A DNA stretch of 24,000 nt, taken from Aquificaceae bacterium (GTDB lineage: Bacteria; Aquificota; Aquificia; Aquificales; Aquificaceae). The translations under genes and the position numbers were made by a program. Location: NCBI GenBank assembly GCA_027079305.1, contig JALWVU010000030.1:23922-47921 (forward strand). Direction: 5' to 3'. Position 1 is the first letter of the stretch; every line of letters begins with the position of its first letter. This document shows, piece after piece, positions 5,461 through 19,805 of this stretch. The notes below the pieces were generated by a model. It worked only from the letters and a program-made list of their open reading frames with translations, was not told the origin of the DNA and searched no databases.

Positions 5461-6531
5461 ATGCTGGAGATAGACGGCTCTCACGGAGAAGGCGGGGGCC
5501 AGGTGGTCAGAACCTGTCTGTTCCTCAGCACCGTTCTGAAGATCCCCGCGAGGATAAAGAATGTGAGGGTAAAGAGGGAGAGGCCCGGCCTCAGGAGACA
5601 GCACCTTCACATAATCAGGCTTCTCAAAAAGCTCGCCTCCGCGGAGGTCGAGGGGGACACCTTGGGCTCTACGGAGCTTACCTACGTTCCCGGTGAGCTG
5701 AGGCCGGGGAGCTACAGCGTTGACTTCGGAAGCGCGGGATCTATAAGCCTCTTCCTCCAGGCGGTTCTCCCCGTTTCCCTCTTCGTTCCCGGAAAGGTTG
5801 AGATAGAGATAGTGGGAGGGACGGAGGTTCCCATGAGTCCCACCGTAGACTGGGTCAGGTTCGTCTACCTTCCCCATATATCGGGGGTTGCCAGGTTCGT
5901 GAGGATAGAGGTGGTCAGAAGGGGCTACCGTCCCGCAGGAGGAGGTCTTGTAAGACTCACCGCGGAAGGCGGTCCTTCCGAAGAACTAAAGGATTTAAAA
6001 TCGGTGAGGGAGTTTTTAAAAGGGAGGCTAAGCCTTTTTAAAAGGAGGAGGGGGGAGATTAAAAGGCTCCACCTCCTCTCGGTGGCGGAGGAGAGGCTGA
6101 GGGAGAGGAGGGTTGTGGAGAGGCAGGTCAAAGGCGCTCTCGATCTCCTGAGGGAAAAGGGTCTTCCCGAGCCGGAGGTCTACAGGCAGTACGTGAAGAG
6201 CTTCTCCATAGGGACGAGCGTGACCATGTGGCTCGAGGACACGGAGGGGAACATAATGGGTGCGGACAGTCTGGGCGAGAAGGGAAAGCCCGCGGAGACC
6301 GTCGGAGGCGAGTGTGCCCAGAAGCTCTGGGAGGACTGGAGCTCTGGGGCGACGGTGGACAGACACCTGGCGGACCACCTCGTTCCCTGGCTGGGTCTTG
6401 CGGGAGGTTCTGTCAGGGTTCCCCTCTTTACGGGACATTTAGAGACGAACATCTGGGTCTGCGAGAGATTCCTGGGCGATGGGACCTTCAGGGTGGTGAG
6501 GGAGGAGGGGATCGTGGAGGCTGTGGTATAA
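5461..6531 (+). CDS. rtcA: RNA 3'-terminal phosphate cyclase (RtcA)
   Basis: N-terminal [31 protein letters not shown] and C-terminal [13 protein letters not shown] are characteristic of RtcA. The length of 356 aa fits. Confidence 0.92.
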
Positions 6532-6539
6532 TCTGGTAA

Positions 6540-9500
6540 ATGGAGATCATCGAAGTCCCCATAGAGGAAGAGGTAAAGCAGTCCTACATAGACTACGCCA
6601 TGTCCGTCATAGTGGGGAGGGCGATCCCCGACGTCAGAGACGGCCTCAAGCCCGTCCAGAGAAGGATACTCTACGCGATGTATGAGATGGGGCTCACTCC
6701 CGATAAGCCCTTCAAGAAGAGCGCGAGGATAGTGGGGGAGTGCTTCGTAAGGGGAACCAAGGTGGTTACCTCCGAAGGGATAAAGAACATAGAGGAGGTG
6801 GAGAGGGGCGATCTGGTTTACACTTCGAGAGGATTGAAGAGAGTTTCGGAGCTTTACGTTATGCCTCCCCAGCCCCTGAAGGAGGTGGTGGTCGATACGG
6901 GCCTGTCGGTAAGATGCACTCCTGGCCAGATGTTCAAGGTTCTGACTCCGGAAGGTGATCTGGTATGGAGGAGGGCCAAGGATCTTAAGGAGGGCGATTT
7001 CCTTCTGCTTAGGGGTGTCTTCCCTGAAGTGGAGAGCAGGATCAAGGTAGAAGGTGTGGAGATAGACGAGAGTCTTGCCTACCTGATAGGCCTGCTGGTC
7101 GGCGACGGCTGGGTTGAGAAAGACAGGCGTGGATACCACAGGGTGGGGCTGTTTATCTCGGACAAAAGGATGAGGGAGAGGGTAGAGAGTATACTTTCTT
7201 CGAAAGGCTTCAGCTTTTCGAGGTCCAAGGACGGCACCGTAAGACTCAACTCAAGAAACTCAAGGACCATCATCAGGATCCTCGAGGCGGATGAGAATCT
7301 AAGCGCAAAGACGAAAAGGATCCCGAGCTGGGTGTTTAAAGCTGATAGGGGGACGGTTCTGGCCTTTGTCTCCGGACTCATAGACTCAGACGGAAGCGTT
7401 CACAAGAGCAGGAACGTTATTACCTTCACTTCCGTCTCGAAGGAGCTTATCAGGGACCTTCAGATCCTCCTCTTCTACCTCGGCATCCCGGCCAGGGTCT
7501 ACACTCAGAGACCTAAGGGTAACAAGATCGGAGGAAGGGAAATAAGACCTAACTACGATACTCACACTCTCGAGATATCGGGACACTATGTGTTGAAGAT
7601 CTTCGCCTCTCCCGTATTGCCCGTTAAAGCGGAGCGCTTGTGCGGGGAAAGGATAACCAAGAGGGTTAAGGCGGATGTGGTGCCTTACATAGGAGGCCTG
7701 TTGCTGAAGGAGTTTTCAGAGAAACATATCGGAGGGGGCTGGTATCTTACGTCGGAAGGTAAAAAAGTTAGGTGCGGTATAAGGTATCCAACAGGAACGA
7801 AGATAAGGTATTCTGCGGATCTGAAGGAGAGGTTTATCCTCTACAAAACAGCTCTGGAAGACCTGAACATCTTAAATAAGGCCGAGCTCGTAGGCTCGAG
7901 GTATGCGAGGCTGCTGAAAGATACACTGGATAAGGGCTGGTTCTTCCTCAGGGTAAAGGAAGTTAAAGACGCTCCTCCCGAGGAGACCTACGACATACAG
8001 GTTGAGGAGGATCACGAGTTTCTGGCTAACGGCTTTGTAGTCCACAACTGCCTCGGAAAGTATCATCCCCACGGGGATCAGGCGGTCTACGACGCCCTCG
8101 TCAGGATGGCCCAGGATTTCTCCATGAGGTATCCCCTCATAATCGGGCAGGGGAACTACGGCTCGGTGGACGGGGACCCGCCGGCCCAGATGAGATACTG
8201 CGTAACGGAGGGCTCCCTCGTCCTGACGAAGAGGGGCCTAATCCCGATCGAGTCCATAGTTCCCGATTCTAAGGACTCCTCGGAGCACGAGATAGATCTG
8301 GAGGTTCTGTCTTTAAACGGGAAGATCAACAGAGCGGACAGATTCTTCAACTCGGGAAAGCATCCCACAATAAAGGTAAGGACCGCCACGGGTCTCGAGA
8401 TAGAGGGGAGCTACAACCATCCCCTTTTAACTCTCGTCAGAGGGGAAGGGGGCAGGCCCACCTACAGGTGGAAGACACTTGAGGAGCTACGGGAGGGGGA
8501 CTACATCGTTGTTGCCAGAGACTCTCAGCTCTTCCCCGATGAGGATCTCATAACGGAGGAGGAGGCCTTCCTTTTGGGAAGCTTCGTTAGTGAGGGATAC
8601 ATAAACGATGGAAGGGTTGGATTTTCTAATGTGAATACAGAGTTTGTGGAAGAGTTCGAAAGGTGTCTCTCGAAAGCTCATGCAGGTTCCTACTGCGCTT
8701 ACGAAAGAAAGCTAAGGAGCGGGAAAACGATAACCGAGTTCCAGATACACAGCAGAGAGTTTATAGAGCGCATAAAGGATCTTGGCTTCAACCACAAGGC
8801 TGGGGAGAAGGAGATCCCTCAGGTGGTCCTGAGATCCTCTAAAAGGGTCCAGAGGGCTTTCCTGAGGGCGCTCTTTGAAGGAGACGGGAGCGTAAGCAAG
8901 GTGGGCCAAACTGTTCTGGTCTTTTACCACTCCAAGAGCCTGAAGCTTATAAAACAGCTCCAGATAGTTCTCCTTAACTTCGGGATAGTGAGCAGGATCC
9001 ACAGGGACAGACATATATACAGGCTTCTGATAAGCGGTGCACACAACCTCAAGAAGTTCTCCGAAGAAATAGGCTTCGTAAGCGAGAAGCAGAAGAAGCT
9101 TGAAGAGTATCTGAAGGACTACGGAAAAGCCCTCAGCAGAACGGACAGGATACCTTTCCTATCGGAATACCTGAGAAGAAAATACAGGTTCAGGTTCAAC
9201 GAGTGGTTCGTAAAGCACAACCTCGACAGATACGAGAGCCTGGAAAGGTATATGCACGTCCTTGAAAAATACTTAGATGAAGAGGATCTAAGGCACGTAA
9301 AGGAGCTTCTCAGGAACAGGTACTTCTTCGATCAGGTTGTCTCCAAGGAGTTCGGGGGATACAAGACAGTCTACTCTATAAGGGTTCAGAGCAGGTGCCA
9401 CTCCTTCGTGGCTAACGGGATAATAAACCACAACACCGAAGCCAAGCTCTCCAAGATTGCGGTCGAGATGCTCGAGGACATAGACAAAGAAACGGTAGAC

Positions 9501-11426
9501 TTCGTCCCCAACTTCGACGAGTCCCTCACGGAGCCCACGGTCCTCCCCTCTAAGTTCCCCAACCTCCTCTGCAACGGGACCGCGGGTATAGCGGTGGGGC
9601 TGGCGACCTCCATACCACCCCATAACCTGAGGGAGGTGGGGAAGGCCCTGATAGAGCTTGCCAAGAACCCCAACATGACCACCGAGGAGATCCTCCAGAT
9701 CATAAAGGGCCCTGACTTCCCCACGGGAGGGGTTGTGGAGAACGCCAAGGACCTTAAGGAGATCTACGAGACGGGGAGGGGAACGATACAGGTCAAGGCC
9801 AAGGCCCACGTGGAGAAGGTCCAGGGGGGAAGGGAGCAGATCGTGGTCTCGGAGATCCCCTACCAGGTGAACAAGGCGGAGCTCATAAAGAAGATAGCGG
9901 ACAACGTGAGAAGCGGGAGGCTCAAGGAGATCTCGGACATAAGGGACGAGTCGGACAAGGAGGGGATAAGGATAGTCATAGAGCTCAAGAGGGAGGCAAA
10001 GGGGGAGAAGGTCCTGAAAAAACTCTTCAAATACACCCAGCTCAGGAAAGGCTTTCCCGTTAACCTTGTGGTCCTCGTGAACGGGGAGCCGAAGCTGGTG
10101 GGCATAAAGGAGCTTCTGAGGGAGTTCATAAGGCACAGGCTCGAGGTTATCCTGAGGAGAACCAGGTTCTTCCTGAGAAAGGCGGAGGACAGGCTCCACG
10201 TGGTTCAGGGGCTCCTGATAGCGATAAACAACCTGGACGAGGTGATAGAGGGGATAAGGAAATCAAAGGATCCCGCGGAAGCGAGGGATATGCTCCAGGC
10301 GCGCTTCGGTCTGACCGAGAGGCAGGCCCAGGCGGTTCTGGATCTCAGGCTCCACAGGCTCACCTCCCTCGAGAGGGACAGACTAAGGCAGGAGGAGGCG
10401 GATCTGCTCCAGAAGATCGATTACTACCGAAAGGTGATAGGTAGCGAGGAGGAGAGGATAAGGATCTTTATAGAGGAGACGCAGGAGCTTGTAAAGAAAT
10501 ACGGAGATCCCAGGAGGACTTTCATAGAGGGCCTCGAAGGAGAGCTGGAGGAGGGATCCCTTGTGGTCACCGTATTGGAGAACGGGAAGGTAATTCCCCT
10601 CGAAGAGATGCCCGAGGGCGAGGCTCCCGTTGTGGACATCCTCGACGTTCCCTTCACCGAAGGTCTTTTCCTGGTCTCCAACAGGGGAAGGGTCTACTGG
10701 CTGGCGGGCTCTCAGGCCCTGAGGGGTAGCAGGGTCCACTTCAAGGAGTCTGAAGAGAGGATAGTGGGGGCCTTCATAAGGGAGCAGTTCGCGGACAGGC
10801 TTCTCCTCGCCACCAGAAACGGGATGATAAAGAAGATCCCCCTCGTTGAGTTCGAATACAAGGCCCAGGGGATGAGGATAATAAAGCTGGCTGAGGACGA
10901 CGAGGTGGTGGGCATAGCCCAGTCCATAGATATGAGCGACGTCCTCGTCTTCACCAGAAGAGGTAAGGTGGCCAGGTTCAACGTGAGGGAGATACCTCCC
11001 GCCACCCCCGGGACCAAGGGGGCCCAGGGCATAAAGCTCGAGGAGAGCGACGAGGTGGTGGGGATAAGGATAATCAGGGAAGAGCCCTTCCTGATAGTGG
11101 TGACGCCCGACGGGAAGGCCAAGAGGATATACCAGGAAGAGGTTCCCGTCAGGAACAGGGGAGTAAAAGGGGTTGGTGTTCTCGGCTCTGCGAGGGAGAG
11201 GTTGATAGACCTGCTTCCCATAAAGGAAGAGCTCGAGGTGTTGGTGAGCACCAAGCTCGGTAAGGCCTTTTACGACAGGATAAGGGCCGGGGACGTCCCC
11301 CTCACCAAGAGGGACAGGCTCGCCAGGCCCAGGTGGGATCTGGAGGAGGGAGACGAGATCAGGAGGGTCGTTATAAAGTCCGAGGTAAAAGAGGATGAGG
11401 AGAGTCAGAATTCTGATCAAGCCTAA
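6540..11426 (+). CDS. gyrA: Type IIA topoisomerase subunit A (GyrA/ParC family) precursor interrupted by two inteins; predicted spliced product 780 aa
   Basis: Exteins match GyrA closely: [32 protein letters not shown], [10 protein letters not shown], [45 protein letters not shown]. The 1628-aa ORF is about twice normal GyrA length, and the excess is explained by two intein insertions. Confidence 0.95.
6741..8048 (+). mobile_element. Intein 1 (436 aa) with a LAGLIDADG homing-endonuclease domain, inserted just upstream of the GKYHPHGD helix
   Basis: Begins with Cys ([10 protein letters not shown]) right after ARIVGE. Ends in VVHN followed by +1 Cys ([10 protein letters not shown]). Two dodecapeptide motifs are present: [14 protein letters not shown] and [14 protein letters not shown]. 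Removing it restores a contiguous GyrA sequence. Confidence 0.9.
8199..9434 (+). mobile_element. Intein 2 (412 aa) with a LAGLIDADG endonuclease domain, inserted immediately after the catalytic Tyr (MRY|C...HN|TEA), the site used by mycobacterial GyrA inteins
   Basis: Starts [13 protein letters not shown] and ends [10 protein letters not shown] with +1 Thr. Block B is [10 protein letters not shown]. Dodecapeptide motifs are [12 protein letters not shown] and [12 protein letters not shown]. Long stretches resemble the M. xenopi GyrA intein as I recall it (IDLxVL...ADRxFxSGxHP...VRT..GL...G...NHPLL.LV). Confidence 0.93.
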
Positions 11427-11616
11427 GGAGGGTCTTCTCGATCCCCAGGGGAGGGCGGTCGAGGAGATGCTCAAGGACAACGGCTTTGAGGTCCGGCACG
11501 TTAAGGTGGGGAAGCTGGTAGAGATGGAAGTCGGAGAGGGGGAGGACGTAAAAAAGCTCGTGGAGAAGTTCATAATCAATCCCCTGATAGAGGATTACGA
11601 GATAGAGGAACTCTGA
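11395..11616 (+). CDS. purS: Phosphoribosylformylglycinamidine synthase subunit PurS
   Basis: 73-aa [34 protein letters not shown] is the typical PurS N-terminus. It lies directly upstream of purQ and overlaps the gyrA 3' end by 32 nt. Confidence 0.9.
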
Positions 11617-12299
11617 TGAGGTTTGCGGTATGCGTCTTCCCCGGATCCAACTGCGACTACGACACCTACTACGTTATAAGGGACGTTCTGGAAAAGGAGG
11701 TGGACTTCGTCTTCCACGACCAGAGGGATCTCTCCAAATACGACTGTGTGGTCCTTCCGGGAGGCTTCTCTTACGGAGATTATCTCAGACCCGGAGCCCT
11801 GGCATCTAAGAGTCCCCTCGCGGAGGCTGTGGCTGAGTTTGCGAGCAGGGGAAAACTCGTTCTGGGAATATGCAACGGTTTTCAGATCCTGACCGAGCTC
11901 CACCTACTCCCGGGCGCTCTCCTTCCGAACCTGAGCATGAGGTTCGTCTGCAAAGATGTCCACCTCAGAGTCGAGAACGGGAACACCCCTCTCACAAAGA
12001 AGCTCGAAGAGGGGGAGATCCTCAGGATTCCCATAGCCCACCACGACGGCAGATACTACGTTCCCAAAAAAGAGCTGAAGGATATGGAAGAAAGGGGCCA
12101 GATCCTCTTCAGATACGTGGACGGGGAGGGAAATCCTACCGATGAAGCCAATCCGAACGGGTCCGTTTCCAACATAGCAGGTGTTATGAACAGGGAGGGA
12201 AACGTCTTCGGTATGATGCCCCATCCGGAGAGGGCCTCCGAGGACATACTGGGAAGCCATGACGGCCTTATGCTGTGGTATTCTCTAATTAGTGATTGA
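11616..12299 (+). CDS. purQ: Phosphoribosylformylglycinamidine synthase glutaminase subunit PurQ
   Basis: FPGSNCDYD, the nucleophile elbow GICNGFQIL and MMPHPER (class I amidotransferase triad). The start overlaps the purS stop (TGATG). Confidence 0.95.
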   Translation: MRFAVCVFPGSNCDYDTYYVIRDVLEKEVDFVFHDQRDLSKYDCVVLPGGFSYGDYLRPGALASKSPLAEAVAEFASRGKLVLGICNGFQILTELHLLPGALLPNLSMRFVCKDVHLRVENGNTPLTKKLEEGEILRIPIAHHDGRYYVPKKELKDMEERGQILFRYVDGEGNPTDEANPNGSVSNIAGVMNREGNVFGMMPHPERASEDILGSHDGLMLWYSLISD

Positions 12300-13389
12300 G
12301 GTAAGCCTCGTAAAGGAAGCTGTAAAGCAGAGGAAGGCCCGCTCCGAGGAGTTCCTGGGGCTTGAATACCTGAGGTTTTCAGACGACTACAAAGACATTC
12401 CCAGAGGAACCGCCGTATTCCAGGACACGGTGGTGTGGGGATACCCCCACATAGGAAGGATATTCATGCTCGAGAAAGGAATCAGAGAGCAGTTCAAGAA
12501 TCCCTTCTGGGTTGAGGAGAAGGTGGACGGCTACAACGTGAGGATATTTAAGGTTGGGGACAGGGTGATCGCCCTGTCCAGGGGAGGATACCTCTGCCCC
12601 TTCACCATAGACAGGCTTCCCGAGTTCATAAACTTAGAGTTCTTTGAGGAGAACCCCGACTTCGTCCTCTGTGCGGAGGTGGCTGGCCCCGAGAACCCCT
12701 ACATAGAGGAGAGCCCCCCCTTCGTTAAGGAGGACATCAAGATCTTCGTCTTCGACATAATGAGGAAGAACGAGCAGGGCTTTTTAAGTCAGGAGGAGAA
12801 GCTGAAGCTCATAGAAAAGTACTCCCTTCCGAGCGTGGAGGTCTTCGGGAGGTTCACCCACGAGGATGTAGACAGGCTCAAGAAACTGCTTATAGAGCTG
12901 AACGAGGAGGGAAGGGAAGGGGTGGTTCTCAAGGAGGACTCGGAGGAGAACAGGAGGGCCAAGTATATCACCAGCTACGCCAACCTGAGCGACATAAAGG
13001 TTACCACCAAAAACATGCTCCAGCTACCTCCCGAATACTACACCAACAGGATACTCAGGCTCGTCCTCTTCATGGAGGAGGAGGGGATAGAGAGGACGGA
13101 GCACCTTTACGAGGAGCTGGGAAGGGCCTTCATAGACGGCCTCTTCGAAGCCATAGAGCAGTTCAAAAGGGAGCACAAGGTATACAGGACCTTCAGATGC
13201 AGGTTCAGGAAGAAAGAAAACGCCCTGGCTCTGATGGAGCTTCTCCACAGAACCTCCAGGCACATACAGGTGGTCCAGAGGGATCTGAGGGAGGAAAAGG
13301 GCTACTGGGTCCTTACCTTCGACAAGATCTTTCTCAACATGACGGGACTTCTGGGACACCTACTCGGTGGCGGGCTTGTGTTTGATTAG
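12292..13389 (+). CDS. ATP-dependent RNA ligase, Pab1020/Rnl3-type
   Basis: Nucleotidyltransferase motifs are in order: [10 protein letters not shown] (motif I, KxDG), ALSRGGY, CAEVAG, IFVFDI, EGVVLKE, RRAKYIT. The GTG start at 12292 overlaps the purQ stop by 8 nt. Family assignment is from recalled motif patterns. Confidence 0.85.
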
Positions 13390-13956
13390 GCCCTCCAGGA
13401 TCCCCTTGAAGTTCCTCGGATCTATAAGCTTTATCCCCACCTTGTCCGCCCACTTCCTGAGACCCTCGTCCGCGGTGACTATCACCCCGTCCAGCTCGTA
13501 GGCTAGAAGCAGAACGTCCACGTCCTCCCTGCTGTCTATTATCCCCTGCCTGAGTGCTTCTCTATACTTCTCCCTCAGTCTGCTCACCACCTTACCCACG
13601 TCCTCCTCCGCCAGCTTCCCCGCCTCCTTGGTGTGCTCCTCGGCGATCCTGAGGCCCTTGTTTATCCTCTGCCTTATCTCCTCTATAAGCTCGTAGAGGA
13701 TCTCGCTCGGTATCATTAGAGAGTATTTCCTCGGGGATCTGATCCTGACCACCATCTCGAACTCGGGAGCCAGGTGCCTGAGGTCCACCATCTTGAGCAT
13801 CTCGTCGTAGACGGAGGTGGGCATGTAGAAGCTTGCCCCAGAGTGTATGGCCAGATGTATGAAGTTCTCTATGGCCCCCAGCTGGTCCTTTTCACCGAAG
13901 GTCTGGTAAACGTCCGGGTTGGTGAATACGCTCGTGTCCAGAACGAAGCTCTCCAT
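13360..13956 (-). CDS. PIN-domain protein of the RNA-ligase-partner (MJ_0950-like) type
   Basis: PIN signatures: N-terminal FVLDTSVF and C-terminal [22 protein letters not shown]. It is adjacent and convergent to the Pab1020-type ligase, a pairing I recall from archaea and Aquifex. The 3' ends overlap by 30 nt. Confidence 0.8.
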
Positions 13957-16476: not shown

Positions 16477-16492
16477 TGGCATGAATTTTGCT
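16477..16492 (+). promoter_or_regulatory. Sigma-54 (-24/-12) promoter for the flavoprotein-Rieske-flavoprotein operon
   Basis: TGGCAT-GAATT-TTGCT matches the TGGCAC-N5-TTGCW consensus with exact spacing. It lies about 40 nt upstream of ATG 16533, next to a sigma-54 activator gene. Confidence 0.7.
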
Positions 16493-16532
16493 AAACATTG
16501 AAAACGAGAAAAACTCAATGGAGGGTGCAAAG

Positions 16533-17837
16533 ATGGAAGTGAGCAGGAGAGACCTGCTAAAGGTAGCGGGAGTGGGAGCGGCGGTAGCCGCAACAAGTGG
16601 AGCTACAAGCTTTACCTTTGCCAAAAGTGTGGATACCATCAACCTTCCCAAGCCCTCGAGAGGTTCCGCGAGGGTAGTTATAGTCGGAGGCGGATGGTCA
16701 GGATCCACGCTTGCCAAATACATTAAGAAGAAGGATCCAAACATAGACGTGGTCCTTATCGAAAAAAACAACGTGTTCATGTCCTGCCCGGTGAGTAACC
16801 TCTGGCTTGTTGACCTCGTAGATCTCGAGTTCCTCATTCATGACCACCTGAAAGCCGCGGACAAGTACGGATACCACTTCATCAACGCGGAGGTCCACGA
16901 CGTTGATAGAAAAAGAAGATACGTCTATACAAGCATAGGCAAGATACATTATGACTACCTCGTTCTCGCTACCGGAATAGACTACGACTACTCCCAGTGG
17001 GTGGGGGACGATCCGAAGGACATAGAGATAGCGATGAAGAAGTATCCCGCAGCCTTCAAACCCGGAGAGGAGCACTTCAGACTGAAAAGAAAGATACAGG
17101 ACTTCGAGGAAGGAAACTTCGTAATAACAGTTCCTCCCGGACTCGACTACAGATGTCTGCCAGGGCCTTACGAAAGGGCTACCATGATAGCCTGGTATTT
17201 CAAGCAGAACGAGATACCTGGAAAGGTTATCCTTCTCGATCCACACAACGATCCACCGGTCAAGGCGGAAGGCTTCCACAAGGCATGGGATGAGTTTGTT
17301 AAGGGATATGTGGAGTACTACCCTCAGACTCAGATAAAGCATGTGGATTTTGGAAAGAAAAGGATAGTTACCAATCTTGGAGACTTCGAGTTTGATGATC
17401 TCAACCTATACCCGAGATGTAAGTCCGCACCTCTCGTTTATAAACTCGGGCTGGTGCCCAAGGGGGACAGATGGCCCTCCCTCAAATGGCCCTGGTACAT
17501 GTCCACAGTGGACGAAAGGATATTCTGCACAGGGGATGCAAGGAACCATCCTTTCTCCAAGAGCGGAAACACCGCCAACTCGGAAGCTCACAACGTTGCG
17601 GAGCTTATCGTAACCTTGATACACGGAAAGAGCATGCCCTACAAACCTCCCAGAACCCTCTGTTACTCCGGGGTGGACAAAGGTAAGGCGGTCTGGGTAG
17701 ATCTGACCTACAAATACGATCCTAAAAAGAACAGCTTTGCCTTCCACAACGTTAAGATGGACAACAATCCTTCTTCTAAAAACTGGAAGGCTTACCTCGA
17801 ATGGGCCAAGGCTATGTACAGAGACATGTTCAGCTGA
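16533..17837 (+). CDS. Tat-exported FCSD/FccB-family FAD flavoprotein, paralog 1 (sulfide-dehydrogenase-like)
   Basis: Twin-arginine signal MEVSRRDLLKVAGVGAAVAA. Dinucleotide fold VVIVGGGWSGSTLAKY. FccB-type motifs MSCPVSN, YRCLPGPYERA and SKSGNTANSEA. Start chosen at ATG 16533 (GGAGGG 7 nt upstream) because the track's TTG 16488 lies inside the -12 promoter element. Confidence 0.85.
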   Translation: MEVSRRDLLKVAGVGAAVAATSGATSFTFAKSVDTINLPKPSRGSARVVIVGGGWSGSTLAKYIKKKDPNIDVVLIEKNNVFMSCPVSNLWLVDLVDLEFLIHDHLKAADKYGYHFINAEVHDVDRKRRYVYTSIGKIHYDYLVLATGIDYDYSQWVGDDPKDIEIAMKKYPAAFKPGEEHFRLKRKIQDFEEGNFVITVPPGLDYRCLPGPYERATMIAWYFKQNEIPGKVILLDPHNDPPVKAEGFHKAWDEFVKGYVEYYPQTQIKHVDFGKKRIVTNLGDFEFDDLNLYPRCKSAPLVYKLGLVPKGDRWPSLKWPWYMSTVDERIFCTGDARNHPFSKSGNTANSEAHNVAELIVTLIHGKSMPYKPPRTLCYSGVDKGKAVWVDLTYKYDPKKNSFAFHNVKMDNNPSSKNWKAYLEWAKAMYRDMFS

Positions 17838-17848
17838 CGGAGGAAAGT

Positions 17849-18565
17849 ATGGACAGGAGGGGTTTCATAAAGACGTGCACTGCCGTTGCCGCCGCTTCCC
17901 TCGCTTCCCCCTCCTTTTTTATAAGCTCCTTGAGGGCACAGGAGGTAGAGTTCAAAGCCTACAAAAAAGCTATCCTTCTGAAGAAGGACGGAACGCCTCT
18001 TAGACCTGAGGATATAGATCCGGGGAAGCAATACATTTTCTTTTATCCCCATAGGGCTACACCCTGCATACTGGCAAACCTTGGAAAGGAAGTTCCGCCC
18101 GCGGATGTAAAGCTATCCGATGGAACCACCTACAGATGGCCCGGGGGAGTTGGACCGAAAAAGAGCATAGTAGCCTACTGTGCAATATGTCCCCATCAGA
18201 TGAGTTATCCTACGCCGGAATACTCTTTCATCAATTACTATCCCGAGAATATCCTTTCCAAGATAGTCAAGAGAGGAGGGGTGATCCAGTGCTGTGCGCA
18301 CCTTTCTGTTTTCGATCCCGCAAAGGGAGGAGAGGTTATAGACGGACCTGCTCCCCAACCGCTCACCGCCATAGTCCTAAAATACGAAGGCGGTAAACTC
18401 TACGCTGTAGGGACACTGGGAAAGGAACTTTACGAGGACTTCTTCGATGTTTTTAAACCTGACCTCAGGAAACTTTACAAGTCCTCGAGGAAGGCTAAGA
18501 AGCTTGTGGACAAGTGTGAGGTTGTAGAGGTGGAAGAGTATGCAAAAGAGGTCATCAGGTGTTAG
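17849..18565 (+). CDS. Tat-exported Rieske-type [2Fe-2S] protein
   Basis: Twin-arginine signal MDRRGFIKTCTAVAAASLA. Rieske ligand boxes are CPH (in YCAICPHQ) and CCAH, followed by LSVFDPAKGGEVIDGPAPQPL, typical of the Rieske fold. Start moved to ATG 17849 (GGAGG 5 nt upstream). Confidence 0.8.
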   Translation: MDRRGFIKTCTAVAAASLASPSFFISSLRAQEVEFKAYKKAILLKKDGTPLRPEDIDPGKQYIFFYPHRATPCILANLGKEVPPADVKLSDGTTYRWPGGVGPKKSIVAYCAICPHQMSYPTPEYSFINYYPENILSKIVKRGGVIQCCAHLSVFDPAKGGEVIDGPAPQPLTAIVLKYEGGKLYAVGTLGKELYEDFFDVFKPDLRKLYKSSRKAKKLVDKCEVVEVEEYAKEVIRC

Positions 18566-19805
18566 CAGGAGAGGGCTTTTGGCCCTGGGAGGAGTTCTTC
18601 TCGCGAGCGGTGTAATAGCTAAAAGCACTTCAAGGTTGCTTCCTCCCTCTAAGGGGAACAGGGTAGTTATAGTAGGGGGAGGCTACGGAGGTGTTACCGC
18701 GGCCAAATACATAAAAAAGGAAAATTCAGACGCGGAAGTCGTGCTTATAGAGAAGAACCAGCTCTTCGTATCCTGCCCTCTGAGCAATCATTATCTTGTA
18801 GGGCTTATAGATTACGGTCAGTTATGCTTTCCCTACAACAGACTCCATACCAAATACGGTGTTAAGGTTATAAACGATGTGGTAGTAGATATAGATCTCC
18901 CCAAAAGGAGAGTATACCTATCGGACGGCTACGTTGATTACGATTACCTTATTCTTTCACCGGGTATAGAGTATGACACCGAGGAGTTTCCCTTCTACGA
19001 GGAAACCACCTGGTTCTTTCCGGGTGCCTTCAGGCCGGGGAGTGAACATCTATACCTGAGAAGACTTCTCGAGGAGTTCGAAGGTGAGAGCATAGTTATA
19101 ACGGTTCCCAGGATGCCCTACAGGTGTCCTCCCGCTCCTTACGAGAGGGCGTCTCTGATCCTCAGCTATATAAGGGAAAACGGCCTTAAAGCCCATATGT
19201 ATTTTCTTGACGCGAACGAGTATCCCCCCGTTCTTAGGGATGGCTTCATGAAGGCTTACGAGGACTTTTACAGGGGAATGGCCACCTACATAACCGGAGT
19301 TCGAATAAAGGATGTAGACGTAGCTTCGAGGAAGATAAAGACAAACAAAGGAGATGTAAGGTTTGATTTCGGATCGATAATACCGCCCATGAGAGCACCC
19401 AAACTCCTTGAGAGAATAGGCCTGATATACGGAAGGGAAAAGTGGGTAAGAGTAGATCCCATGACCTTTGAGACCAAGGTCAAAAACGTTTTTGTGATAG
19501 GGGACTCCTGTGAGTCCTATCTCCCCAAAAGCGGATACGCCGCTAACTCTCAGGCTAAGGTCGTCGCCAGGATAGTTTCAAGCAGAATAAAAGGTAAGGA
19601 ATTTGGGGGAGAGCTTATCCAGCACGGTGTCTGCTACGCCATGGTGAACTTAAAGTCCGCCATAATGCTCGAGGTGGAATACAAATACAATGTAAGAACT
19701 AAACAGATAAACAAGATCCTCAGGGAGGATAACACCTGGAAAGTTTCTACCGCCAAGAGATACTATGAGTGGGCGAGGGGTCTGTGGAGGGATATGTTCT
19801 TCTGA
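18540..19805 (+). CDS. Tat-exported FCSD/FccB-family FAD flavoprotein, paralog 2
   Basis: Twin-arginine signal SRRGLLALGGVLLASG. VVIVGGGYGGVTAAKY, VSCPLSN, YRCPPAPYERA, VIGDSCESYLPKSGYAANSQAKV. It aligns with paralog 1 along its whole length, including the shared C-terminal EWA+xx+RDMF motif. The start overlaps the Rieske gene by 26 nt, with GAGGTGG upstream. Confidence 0.88.
   Translation: MQKRSSGVSRRGLLALGGVLLASGVIAKSTSRLLPPSKGNRVVIVGGGYGGVTAAKYIKKENSDAEVVLIEKNQLFVSCPLSNHYLVGLIDYGQLCFPYNRLHTKYGVKVINDVVVDIDLPKRRVYLSDGYVDYDYLILSPGIEYDTEEFPFYEETTWFFPGAFRPGSEHLYLRRLLEEFEGESIVITVPRMPYRCPPAPYERASLILSYIRENGLKAHMYFLDANEYPPVLRDGFMKAYEDFYRGMATYITGVRIKDVDVASRKIKTNKGDVRFDFGSIIPPMRAPKLLERIGLIYGREKWVRVDPMTFETKVKNVFVIGDSCESYLPKSGYAANSQAKVVARIVSSRIKGKEFGGELIQHGVCYAMVNLKSAIMLEVEYKYNVRTKQINKILREDNTWKVSTAKRYYEWARGLWRDMFF

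Follow-up and report, generated by a model that had tools for sequence, protein, structure and literature searches.

Multi-intein genes and the inteins of GyrA are textbook cases. Here, a gyrA-type gene that carries two inteins is described from a 24,000-nucleotide stretch of a heat-loving Aquificaceae bacterium (NCBI GenBank assembly GCA_027079305.1, contig JALWVU010000030.1, positions 23,922 to 47,921 of the forward strand). This whole stretch is referred to as the window, and all positions are counted from its first letter. The gene is predicted to encode the A subunit of a type IIA topoisomerase, and we consider it likely that its two inserts are unrelated mobile inteins, each with a HINT domain and a nested LAGLIDADG endonuclease, which excise themselves from the GyrA precursor and persist by homing. 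We also propose, tentatively and as something short of probable, that the inteins at the first of the two sites form an undescribed catalytic variant, namely a large, active, cross-phylum family in which the block B His has given way to an invariant Gln.

Among described systems, the Haloferax MCM-a/MCM-d pair resembles this locus in having two endonuclease-bearing inteins close to each other in a single essential, replication-related gene, with populations that are polymorphic for none, one or both inteins and show frequent gain and loss (PMC10643990). In that work, neighbouring endonucleases hamper the invasion of empty alleles, and a lack of one or both inteins in close relatives is read as a mark of selfish turnover (Turgeman-Grott et al. 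2023, PMC10643990). Comparable systems also include multi-intein genes from Thermococcales and Halobacteriales. The present host differs in being a bacterial topoisomerase. For GyrA itself, the tally of Novikova et al. (2016) counts 50 GyrA inteins, some of them in Aquificae. As regards catalysis, reviews call the block B histidine, His B:10, the most conserved intein residue (PMC4031507, PMC7765530, PMC6333167), and name only two inteins without it, the active Tko CDC21-1, which has a compensating Lys58, and one pseudogene (PMC4031507, PMC7765530).

The precursor gene of the window is divided as follows.

6540-11426, plus strand: gyrA-type precursor open reading frame (type IIA topoisomerase A subunit), uninterrupted, 1628 residues plus stop
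6540-6740, plus strand: N-extein, 67 residues, ending ...KSARIVGE, colinear with the intein-free Hydrogenivirga GyrA (P0130)
6741-8048, plus strand: intein 1, precursor residues 68-503, 436 residues, CFVRG...FVVHN followed by Cys, HINT and LAGLIDADG
8049-8198, plus strand: extein island, precursor residues 504-553, 50 residues, ending ...AQMRY
8199-9434, plus strand: intein 2, precursor residues 554-965, 412 residues, CVTEG...IINHN followed by Thr, HINT and LAGLIDADG
9435-11423, plus strand: C-extein, 663 residues, beginning at the +1 Thr (TEAKL...)

The segment borders were obtained by string matching in the plus-strand translation of 6540-11426, and the motifs were translated a second time. 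An earlier note on this DNA, made from its letters alone, had placed both inteins and the island at coordinates that prove exact to the base, and the 50-residue extein between the inteins reads exactly as quoted there. Its statement that the two inteins outweigh their host protein was recomputed from the translation and holds, with 848 residues against the 780 of the spliced extein. The translation, together with the Pfam and NCBIfam matches, bears out two separate inteins with +1 Cys for intein 1 (also the first residue of the island) and +1 Thr for intein 2. Since the island is flanked on both sides by separate inteins, the claim that a functional subunit requires two splicing events stands as well. 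The note had further assigned to the island the helix equivalent to E. coli Ser83/Asp87 and the catalytic Tyr122. An alignment of the spliced product puts site 1 between residues 72 and 73 of E. coli GyrA and site 2 between 122 and 123, so that the island corresponds to residues 73-122 and holds most of the quinolone-resistance-determining region and the catalytic Tyr, which is the -1 residue of intein 2. The helix, Asp87 and the Tyr are thus present, but the Ser83 position is occupied by Gln. In the E. coli GyrA sequence used as the reference, S83, D87 and Y122 carry their established numbers.

In-silico removal of both inserts yields a product that is colinear with the intein-free Hydrogenivirga GyrA, without a gap across either junction and at 88% identity. 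This indel-free alignment indicates that both are precise in-frame insertions. Both also possess the HINT domain, the N-terminal nucleophile and the C-terminal Asn of class 1 inteins, and each contains two LAGLIDADG motifs with catalytic Asp or Glu. A profile search of the precursor found the NCBIfam intein terminal motifs TIGR01443/TIGR01445.

Intein 2 gives matches to Pfam Intein_splicing (E 2e-13) and, in two stretches, to LAGLIDADG_3 (E 1.5e-26). It matches positions 117-537 of NF038098, the "intein-containing DNA gyrase subunit A" model, with E 3e-84, while the precursor as a whole stays below the 1850-bit cut-off of this exception-type model, as is to be expected when the host lies outside the mycobacteria. 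Intein 2 further matches 1am2, the structure of the Mxe GyrA intein, with E 4e-28, and its identity to Mxe GyrA is 44% over the N-terminal 110 residues, which form the HINT half. The motifs of intein 2 are as follows.

8409-8420, plus strand: block B, S71-Y-N-H74, with the canonical His; H74 in 81 of 81 relatives
8571-8603, plus strand: LAGLIDADG motif 1, catalytic Glu132
8862-8894, plus strand: LAGLIDADG motif 2, catalytic Asp229
9369-9434, plus strand: blocks F and G, His401, penultimate His411, terminal Asn412

The splice residues C1, H411-N412 and T+1 are invariant in the 81 relatives. Intein 2 is inserted at the same point as Mxe GyrA, between the catalytic Tyr and Thr+1, and shares with it Cys1, the xxNH-P motif of block B, a Ser where block F usually has Asp, and the HN/T ending. 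It differs in having a full LAGLIDADG endonuclease (412 residues, compared with 198 for the Mxe mini-intein) and Ser instead of Thr at block B position 7, and it differs from the mycobacterial GyrA inteins in its Aquificota host and in the second intein located 50 residues upstream in the same gene. Given the NF038098 and 1am2 matches, the identity to Mxe GyrA and the MRY/C...HN/TEAK insertion (slashes mark splice junctions), intein 2 is the classical GyrA allele with its endonuclease retained.

For intein 1, the corresponding matches are to Intein_splicing (E 7e-15) and to two stretches of LAGLIDADG_3 (E 5e-22). The motifs are as follows.

6918-6929, plus strand: block B, T60-P-G-Q63, with Gln where other inteins have His (B:10)
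7083-7115, plus strand: LAGLIDADG motif 1, catalytic Asp122; Asp in 61 of 69 relatives
7368-7400, plus strand: LAGLIDADG motif 2, catalytic Asp217; Asp in 63 of 69 relatives
7986-8048, plus strand: blocks F and G, Asp418, His425, penultimate His435, terminal Asn436

The nucleophiles are C1, H435-N436 and C+1. Among the 69 relatives, C1, D418, H425, N436 and C+1 are invariant, H435 is found in 68, and T60 is invariant or nearly so. Together with those of intein 2, all four LAGLIDADG catalytic acids (D122, D217, E132 and D229) are present and correspond to the family majority. A single-sequence AlphaFold model of intein 1 was unusable (predicted local distance difference test score, pLDDT, of 37) and was replaced by one of the N-extein, intein 1 and the island built on a 65-sequence alignment, in which the intein has pLDDT values mostly of 85-97 and the predicted template modelling (TM) score is 0.79. 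The best structural matches to this model in the Protein Data Bank (PDB) are TliVMA (7qss), PI-PfuI (1dq3), PI-TkoII (2cw7) and PI-SceI (1vde), with Foldseek E-values of 4e-22 to 1e-13 and TM scores, normalised to the target, of 0.47-0.69. They have the same two-domain architecture of HINT and LAGLIDADG, yet their sequence identity to intein 1 is only 14-20% and their host proteins are others. A duplication of one of the two inteins to give the other was considered and rejected, as they are 23% identical and represent different alleles.

Directly before the block B Thr60, the intein 1 of the Aquificota members carries a Cys (Cys59, 6915-6917). This residue is not conserved, its place being taken by Val in many of the other members of the family; it might form a disulphide with Cys1 (6741-6743) or Cys+1 (8049-8051).

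The TxxH motif of class 1 inteins, present in intein 2 as S71-Y-N-H74, reads TPGQ in intein 1, the one non-canonical catalytic feature here and one that the earlier note had overlooked. In a search of the family's HINT profile against the PDB, Q63 aligns with the block B His of two solved inteins, gp41-1 (6qaz, CSEEH) and P. horikoshii CDC21 (6rpq, VTPTH), both of which, unlike intein 1, have His there. The relatives compared at block B lie among P0002-P0120, P0159-P0169 and P0189-P0269. Gln occupies this position in 69 of 69 distinct site-1 inteins of the first search. A protein search with intein 1 alone returned only proteins of at most 735 residues, either fragments or inteins of other hosts, and hence gives no measure of co-occupancy at site 2; it supplied ten GyrA fragments (one actinobacterial), all with Gln, and His-bearing controls, as the more distant inteins of other host proteins have His in the block B column. 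Among 21 representatives of 50% clusters that have a site-1 intein, 18 have Gln and three (P0210, P0216 and P0327) have TxxH. Since these three keep TxxH at the same site, Gln has directly replaced His within a set of homologous inteins. Inteins without the His are still counted as inteins in reviews (PMC4031507), so that its absence from block B makes intein 1 a variant and does not exclude it from class 1.

The Gln-type intein is present in gyrA of the cultured Desulfurobacterium thermolithotrophum DSM 11699 and Thermovibrio guaymasensis. Its invariance across phyla in an essential-type gene and its presence in cultured species argue that it splices in vivo. The nearest parallel is Tko CDC21-1. 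Like it, intein 1 lacks His B:10 and yet lies in an essential-type gene and is conserved, so that it is presumably active by compensation. The host protein and intein lineage of Tko CDC21-1 are others, and the GyrA site-1 family, found in many bacterial and archaeal phyla, is far more widespread. The position of the Tko Lys58, 23 residues after B:10 by linear count (loop lengths may differ), corresponds to a near-invariant Asp86 in intein 1, and the compensating mechanism is therefore probably unlike that of Tko CDC21-1. No paper on the GyrA site-1 family, a Gln-type block B or a double-intein GyrA was found in the open-access literature, to which this weak evidence is confined; the Gln-type block B is thus probably, though not established to be, undescribed.

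Site occupancy was mapped by motifs in 158 sequences, comprising the 120 best matches to the whole precursor and the members of their clusters. Since the query itself carries both inteins, this sample is biased. In it, 39 sequences are occupied at site 1 only, 49 at site 2 only and 41 at both. The earlier note had presented the layout as singular, which it is not: it recurs in several lineages, with 28 distinct double-intein junction sequences among the best matches and cluster members. Double occupancy is found in the window's own clade (P0002-P0006, extein 80-90% identical), in sequences labelled Persephonella sp. and Desulfurobacteriaceae (P0012-P0017), in archaeal metagenome-assembled genomes labelled Lokiarchaeota and Nanoarchaeota along with unlabelled relatives, and, with a site-1 mini-intein of 160-200 residues (160-170 in P0065 and P0102), in P0062, P0065, P0066 and P0102. 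By extein, the closest relatives (P0007/P0134, 92%) carry intein 2 alone, and the GyrA of Hydrogenivirga sp. 128-5-R1-1 (P0130, 781 residues, extein 88%) has none.

The gene order rtcA-gyrA-purS-purQ-RNA ligase(-PIN_5) is common to the window and to three related loci: L081 (P0007), where site 1 is empty and only intein 2 is present, and L082 (P0003) and L083 (P0004), which have both inteins. This common order indicates that the four are alleles of one gene and not paralogues. An exhaustive HMMER search that took intein 1 as its query and covered 1.84 billion cluster representatives gave 58 matches at E <= 1e-30. A scan of contigs by junction alignment found an intein in 3 of 80 loci among the matches listed, which were mostly ordinary gyrA; keyed on the generic motifs GKYHPHGD and YDALVRMAQ, it gives neither a usable frequency nor a picture of paralogues. 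Five of the 21 examined representatives with a site-1 intein have a further intein within the island. P0191 (1351 residues), an unrelated database sequence, has an extra mini-intein after HPHGD (between E. coli residues 82 and 83), which makes it a triple-intein GyrA, and P0199 (1004 residues) has an extra insertion after GQGNFG (between 110 and 111). The region of GyrA 73-122 is hence a hot spot for inteins, which occupy at least four different positions in it.

Intein-free gyrA genes at loci L016, L061, L067 and L073 have Cys at the site-1 +1 position (VGDC[LM]GK), where Val or Ile is usual. This Cys could be the footprint of a past intein loss, or variation that pre-adapts the site.

Selection was evaluated by codon comparison with L081, L082 and L083. 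The ratio of nonsynonymous to synonymous substitution rates (dN/dS) is 0.04-0.16 in the HINT and endonuclease parts of both inteins, where dS could be estimated, and about 0.003-0.15 in the extein. Both inteins, endonuclease domains included, are under purifying selection. The GC content at third codon positions is 0.64-0.66 in the inteins versus 0.79 in the exteins, a difference that fits either an evolutionary history of their own or codon selection that is weaker. The intein 1 most similar to that of the window is the one in L082 (nucleotide identity 0.77-0.83, versus 0.60-0.67 for L083), whereas the window's intein 2 is nearest to that of L081 (0.85-0.91), the locus without intein 1, and its C-extein is nearest to L081/L083. 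The nearest relatives of the two inteins thus point to different recent histories. At the site-1 flank, occupied alleles read IVGE/CL (76 of 96) and empty alleles VVGE/VL and similar, a difference that is the pattern expected from co-conversion during homing. A co-conversion tract around site 1 was not resolvable between the window and L081, given short segments and high dS.

Under the proposed mechanism, the 1628-residue precursor would fold into two independent intein modules, each excising itself. In intein 2, Cys1 would undergo the N-S acyl shift, aided by Ser71 and His74 of block B, the acyl group would be transesterified onto Thr+1, and Asn412 would cyclise with the help of His411, an O-N shift finishing the ligation. 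Intein 1 would use Cys1, Cys+1, Asp418 and His425 of block F, and His435-Asn436. Its Gln63, in the place of the block B His, would presumably form hydrogen bonds to the scissile peptide and strain it, without protonation. The product would be the 780-residue A subunit with the island ligated on both sides, and both splicings would be needed before the segment of the winged helix and catalytic Tyr is covalently continuous with the rest of GyrA. Because the island holds the quinolone-resistance-determining region and this Tyr, no partial enzyme activity would be expected until both are complete. The endonucleases would home the inteins into empty alleles with co-conversion of the flanks, a process that would explain both the alleles with no, one or two inteins in the clade and the discord between intein and extein similarity. 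Persistence by homing is suggested by the intact and conserved state of both endonucleases. By analogy with Haloferax, invasion hampered by two close cuts may apply here too, the sites being 150 nucleotides apart.

Several points weigh against two self-splicing, homing inteins. Splicing of both is deduced from conserved residues and established intein chemistry, and endonuclease activity, in turn, from motifs and selection. For many inteins, the block B His has been called essential (PMC7765530, PMC6333167), and the case for efficient splicing of intein 1 is one of conservation. The dS values are high and partly saturated, fully so in two segments. The conservation of the endonuclease domains could reflect a structural need for splicing, as in some inteins (PMC10643990), and a second, intein-free A subunit may exist elsewhere in the genome, beyond the 24-kb window. 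Another reading is that of a dead copy, that is, a decaying or dispensable paralogue, or an intein 1 defective in splicing through loss of its block B His. One of the two listed His-less inteins is indeed a pseudogene (PMC4031507), and the score of the spliced extein falls slightly short of the gyrA equivalog cut-offs. However, the 4.9-kb reading frame is uninterrupted, dN/dS is low, all other catalytic residues are intact and synteny with the orthologues is kept. The Gln is fixed in the 69 relatives across bacteria and archaea, cultured isolates included, and the intein-free Hydrogenivirga GyrA matches the spliced protein in length and in its odd C-terminal domain. A dead copy is, accordingly, highly improbable.

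Interdependent or ordered splicing, with the island too short to fold alone and one intein having to go first, or homing of both inteins as a single 2.7-kb cassette, is also unlikely. The island is of low confidence in the AlphaFold model (pLDDT 34-57), and in 23 double-intein proteins the distances of intein 1 and intein 2 correlate after accounting for extein distance (partial r 0.54, reached in 0 of 2000 permutations), although matrix permutation tests are liberal on related sequences. This correlation is weak evidence of shared history and is no proof of cassette transfer. Each intein occurs alone in many genomes, as the occupancy counts show, the nearest relative of the window's intein 2 lies in a locus without intein 1, and the double inteins of Haloferax MCM homed poorly into empty alleles (PMC10643990). 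Conditional splicing, by which one or both inteins would act as a post-translational switch that permits active gyrase or topoisomerase IV only at a suitable temperature or redox state, had been raised as a possibility in the earlier note; it is likewise doubtful, and we rate it as quite unlikely. A disulphide between Cys1 and Cys+1, or between Cys1 and Cys59, may provide the mechanism in intein 1, which has Cys at both junctions and directly before Thr60. The inserts lie in the catalytic core of the enzyme, there are reports of such control in other inteins, from thermophiles and mycobacteria (cited in PMC10643990, PMC7765530), and both inteins are retained under purifying selection. Nevertheless, the idea is pure speculation for which sequence and comparisons offer nothing, either in favour or to exclude it. 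The purifying selection would also be expected of a purely selfish element inside an essential gene, Cys59 is variable across the family, and a fixed beneficial regulator fits poorly with a P0007 that lacks intein 1 and a Hydrogenivirga GyrA that lacks both. A host benefit or regulatory role is required by none of the evidence: the two inteins look like active selfish elements, and nothing points to regulation.

As for the host enzyme, the precursor matches Pfam DNA_topoisoIV (E 5e-149) and DNA_gyraseA_C. The spliced extein scores 860 bits with TIGR01063 gyrA (cut-off 877) and 866 with NF004043 (cut-off 902), and exceeds the cut-off only of NF004044 (753 versus 654), a generic type IIA A-subunit model. 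The spliced protein is short, at 780 residues, and the canonical GyrA box QRRGGKG was not found in it, with only RNRGVKG at extein residue 690, near the C-terminus; the intein-free Hydrogenivirga GyrA shares these traits. The "GyrA" of Aquifex aeolicus reportedly acts as topoisomerase IV, as Tretter et al. are said to have found in 2010. Judging from these profile scores and motifs, the enzyme may be a gyrase or a topoisomerase IV-like A subunit, a question without effect on the conclusions about the inteins.

Extein similarity places the host within Aquificota, near Hydrogenivirga. The gyrA-type gene is chromosomal, and its neighbours are ordinary chromosomal genes. Upstream and around it are hemD, lpxC, a di-haem peroxidase, an ArsA-like ATPase, a CLC channel and rtcA; downstream are purS, purQ, a Pab1020-type RNA ligase and a PIN_5 nuclease; further along the window are an NtrC-type two-component pair, two FCSD-like flavoproteins, argB, pmbA/tldD and dnaX. 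Scans of the window for tRNA and Rfam families gave no matches, and no further intein was found among those of its open reading frames that were scanned. The purS gene (73 residues, 11395-11616) starts 32 nucleotides ahead of the gyrA stop in a different frame, and this overlap is kept in L081-L084 along with the order rtcA-gyrA-purS-purQ-RNA ligase. Genes of RNA-repair type flank gyrA, with rtcA (RNA 3'-phosphate cyclase, 5461-6531) upstream and, downstream, the RNA ligase (12292-13389) followed by the convergent PIN_5 ribonuclease (13360-13956); their order is conserved in relatives and has no evident link to the inteins. A 254-residue open reading frame (17801-18565) that has no Pfam match is bordered on either side by one of two FCSD/SQR-like flavoproteins (16488-17837 and 18540-19805), which are paralogues.

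The double-intein GyrA layout is a recurrent case of a known phenomenon, the clustering of multiple inteins at the catalytic core of a replication-related enzyme. It is already present, unremarked, in many database entries, and as a double-intein gene the locus adds little. The alleles with no, one or two inteins within single Aquificota lineages do provide a bacterial counterpart to Haloferax MCM for the interplay of neighbouring endonucleases. The widespread Gln-for-His family bears on the mechanism of the first splicing step, which simple constructs could test, and the window's precursor places a Gln-type and a His-type intein next to each other in one polypeptide. If the proposed variant is real, site-1 inteins would activate their N-terminal splice junction by an undescribed route, and the family would be a natural test bed for the N-S acyl shift without imidazole and a source of thermostable inteins that differ in their sensitivity to pH and metals.

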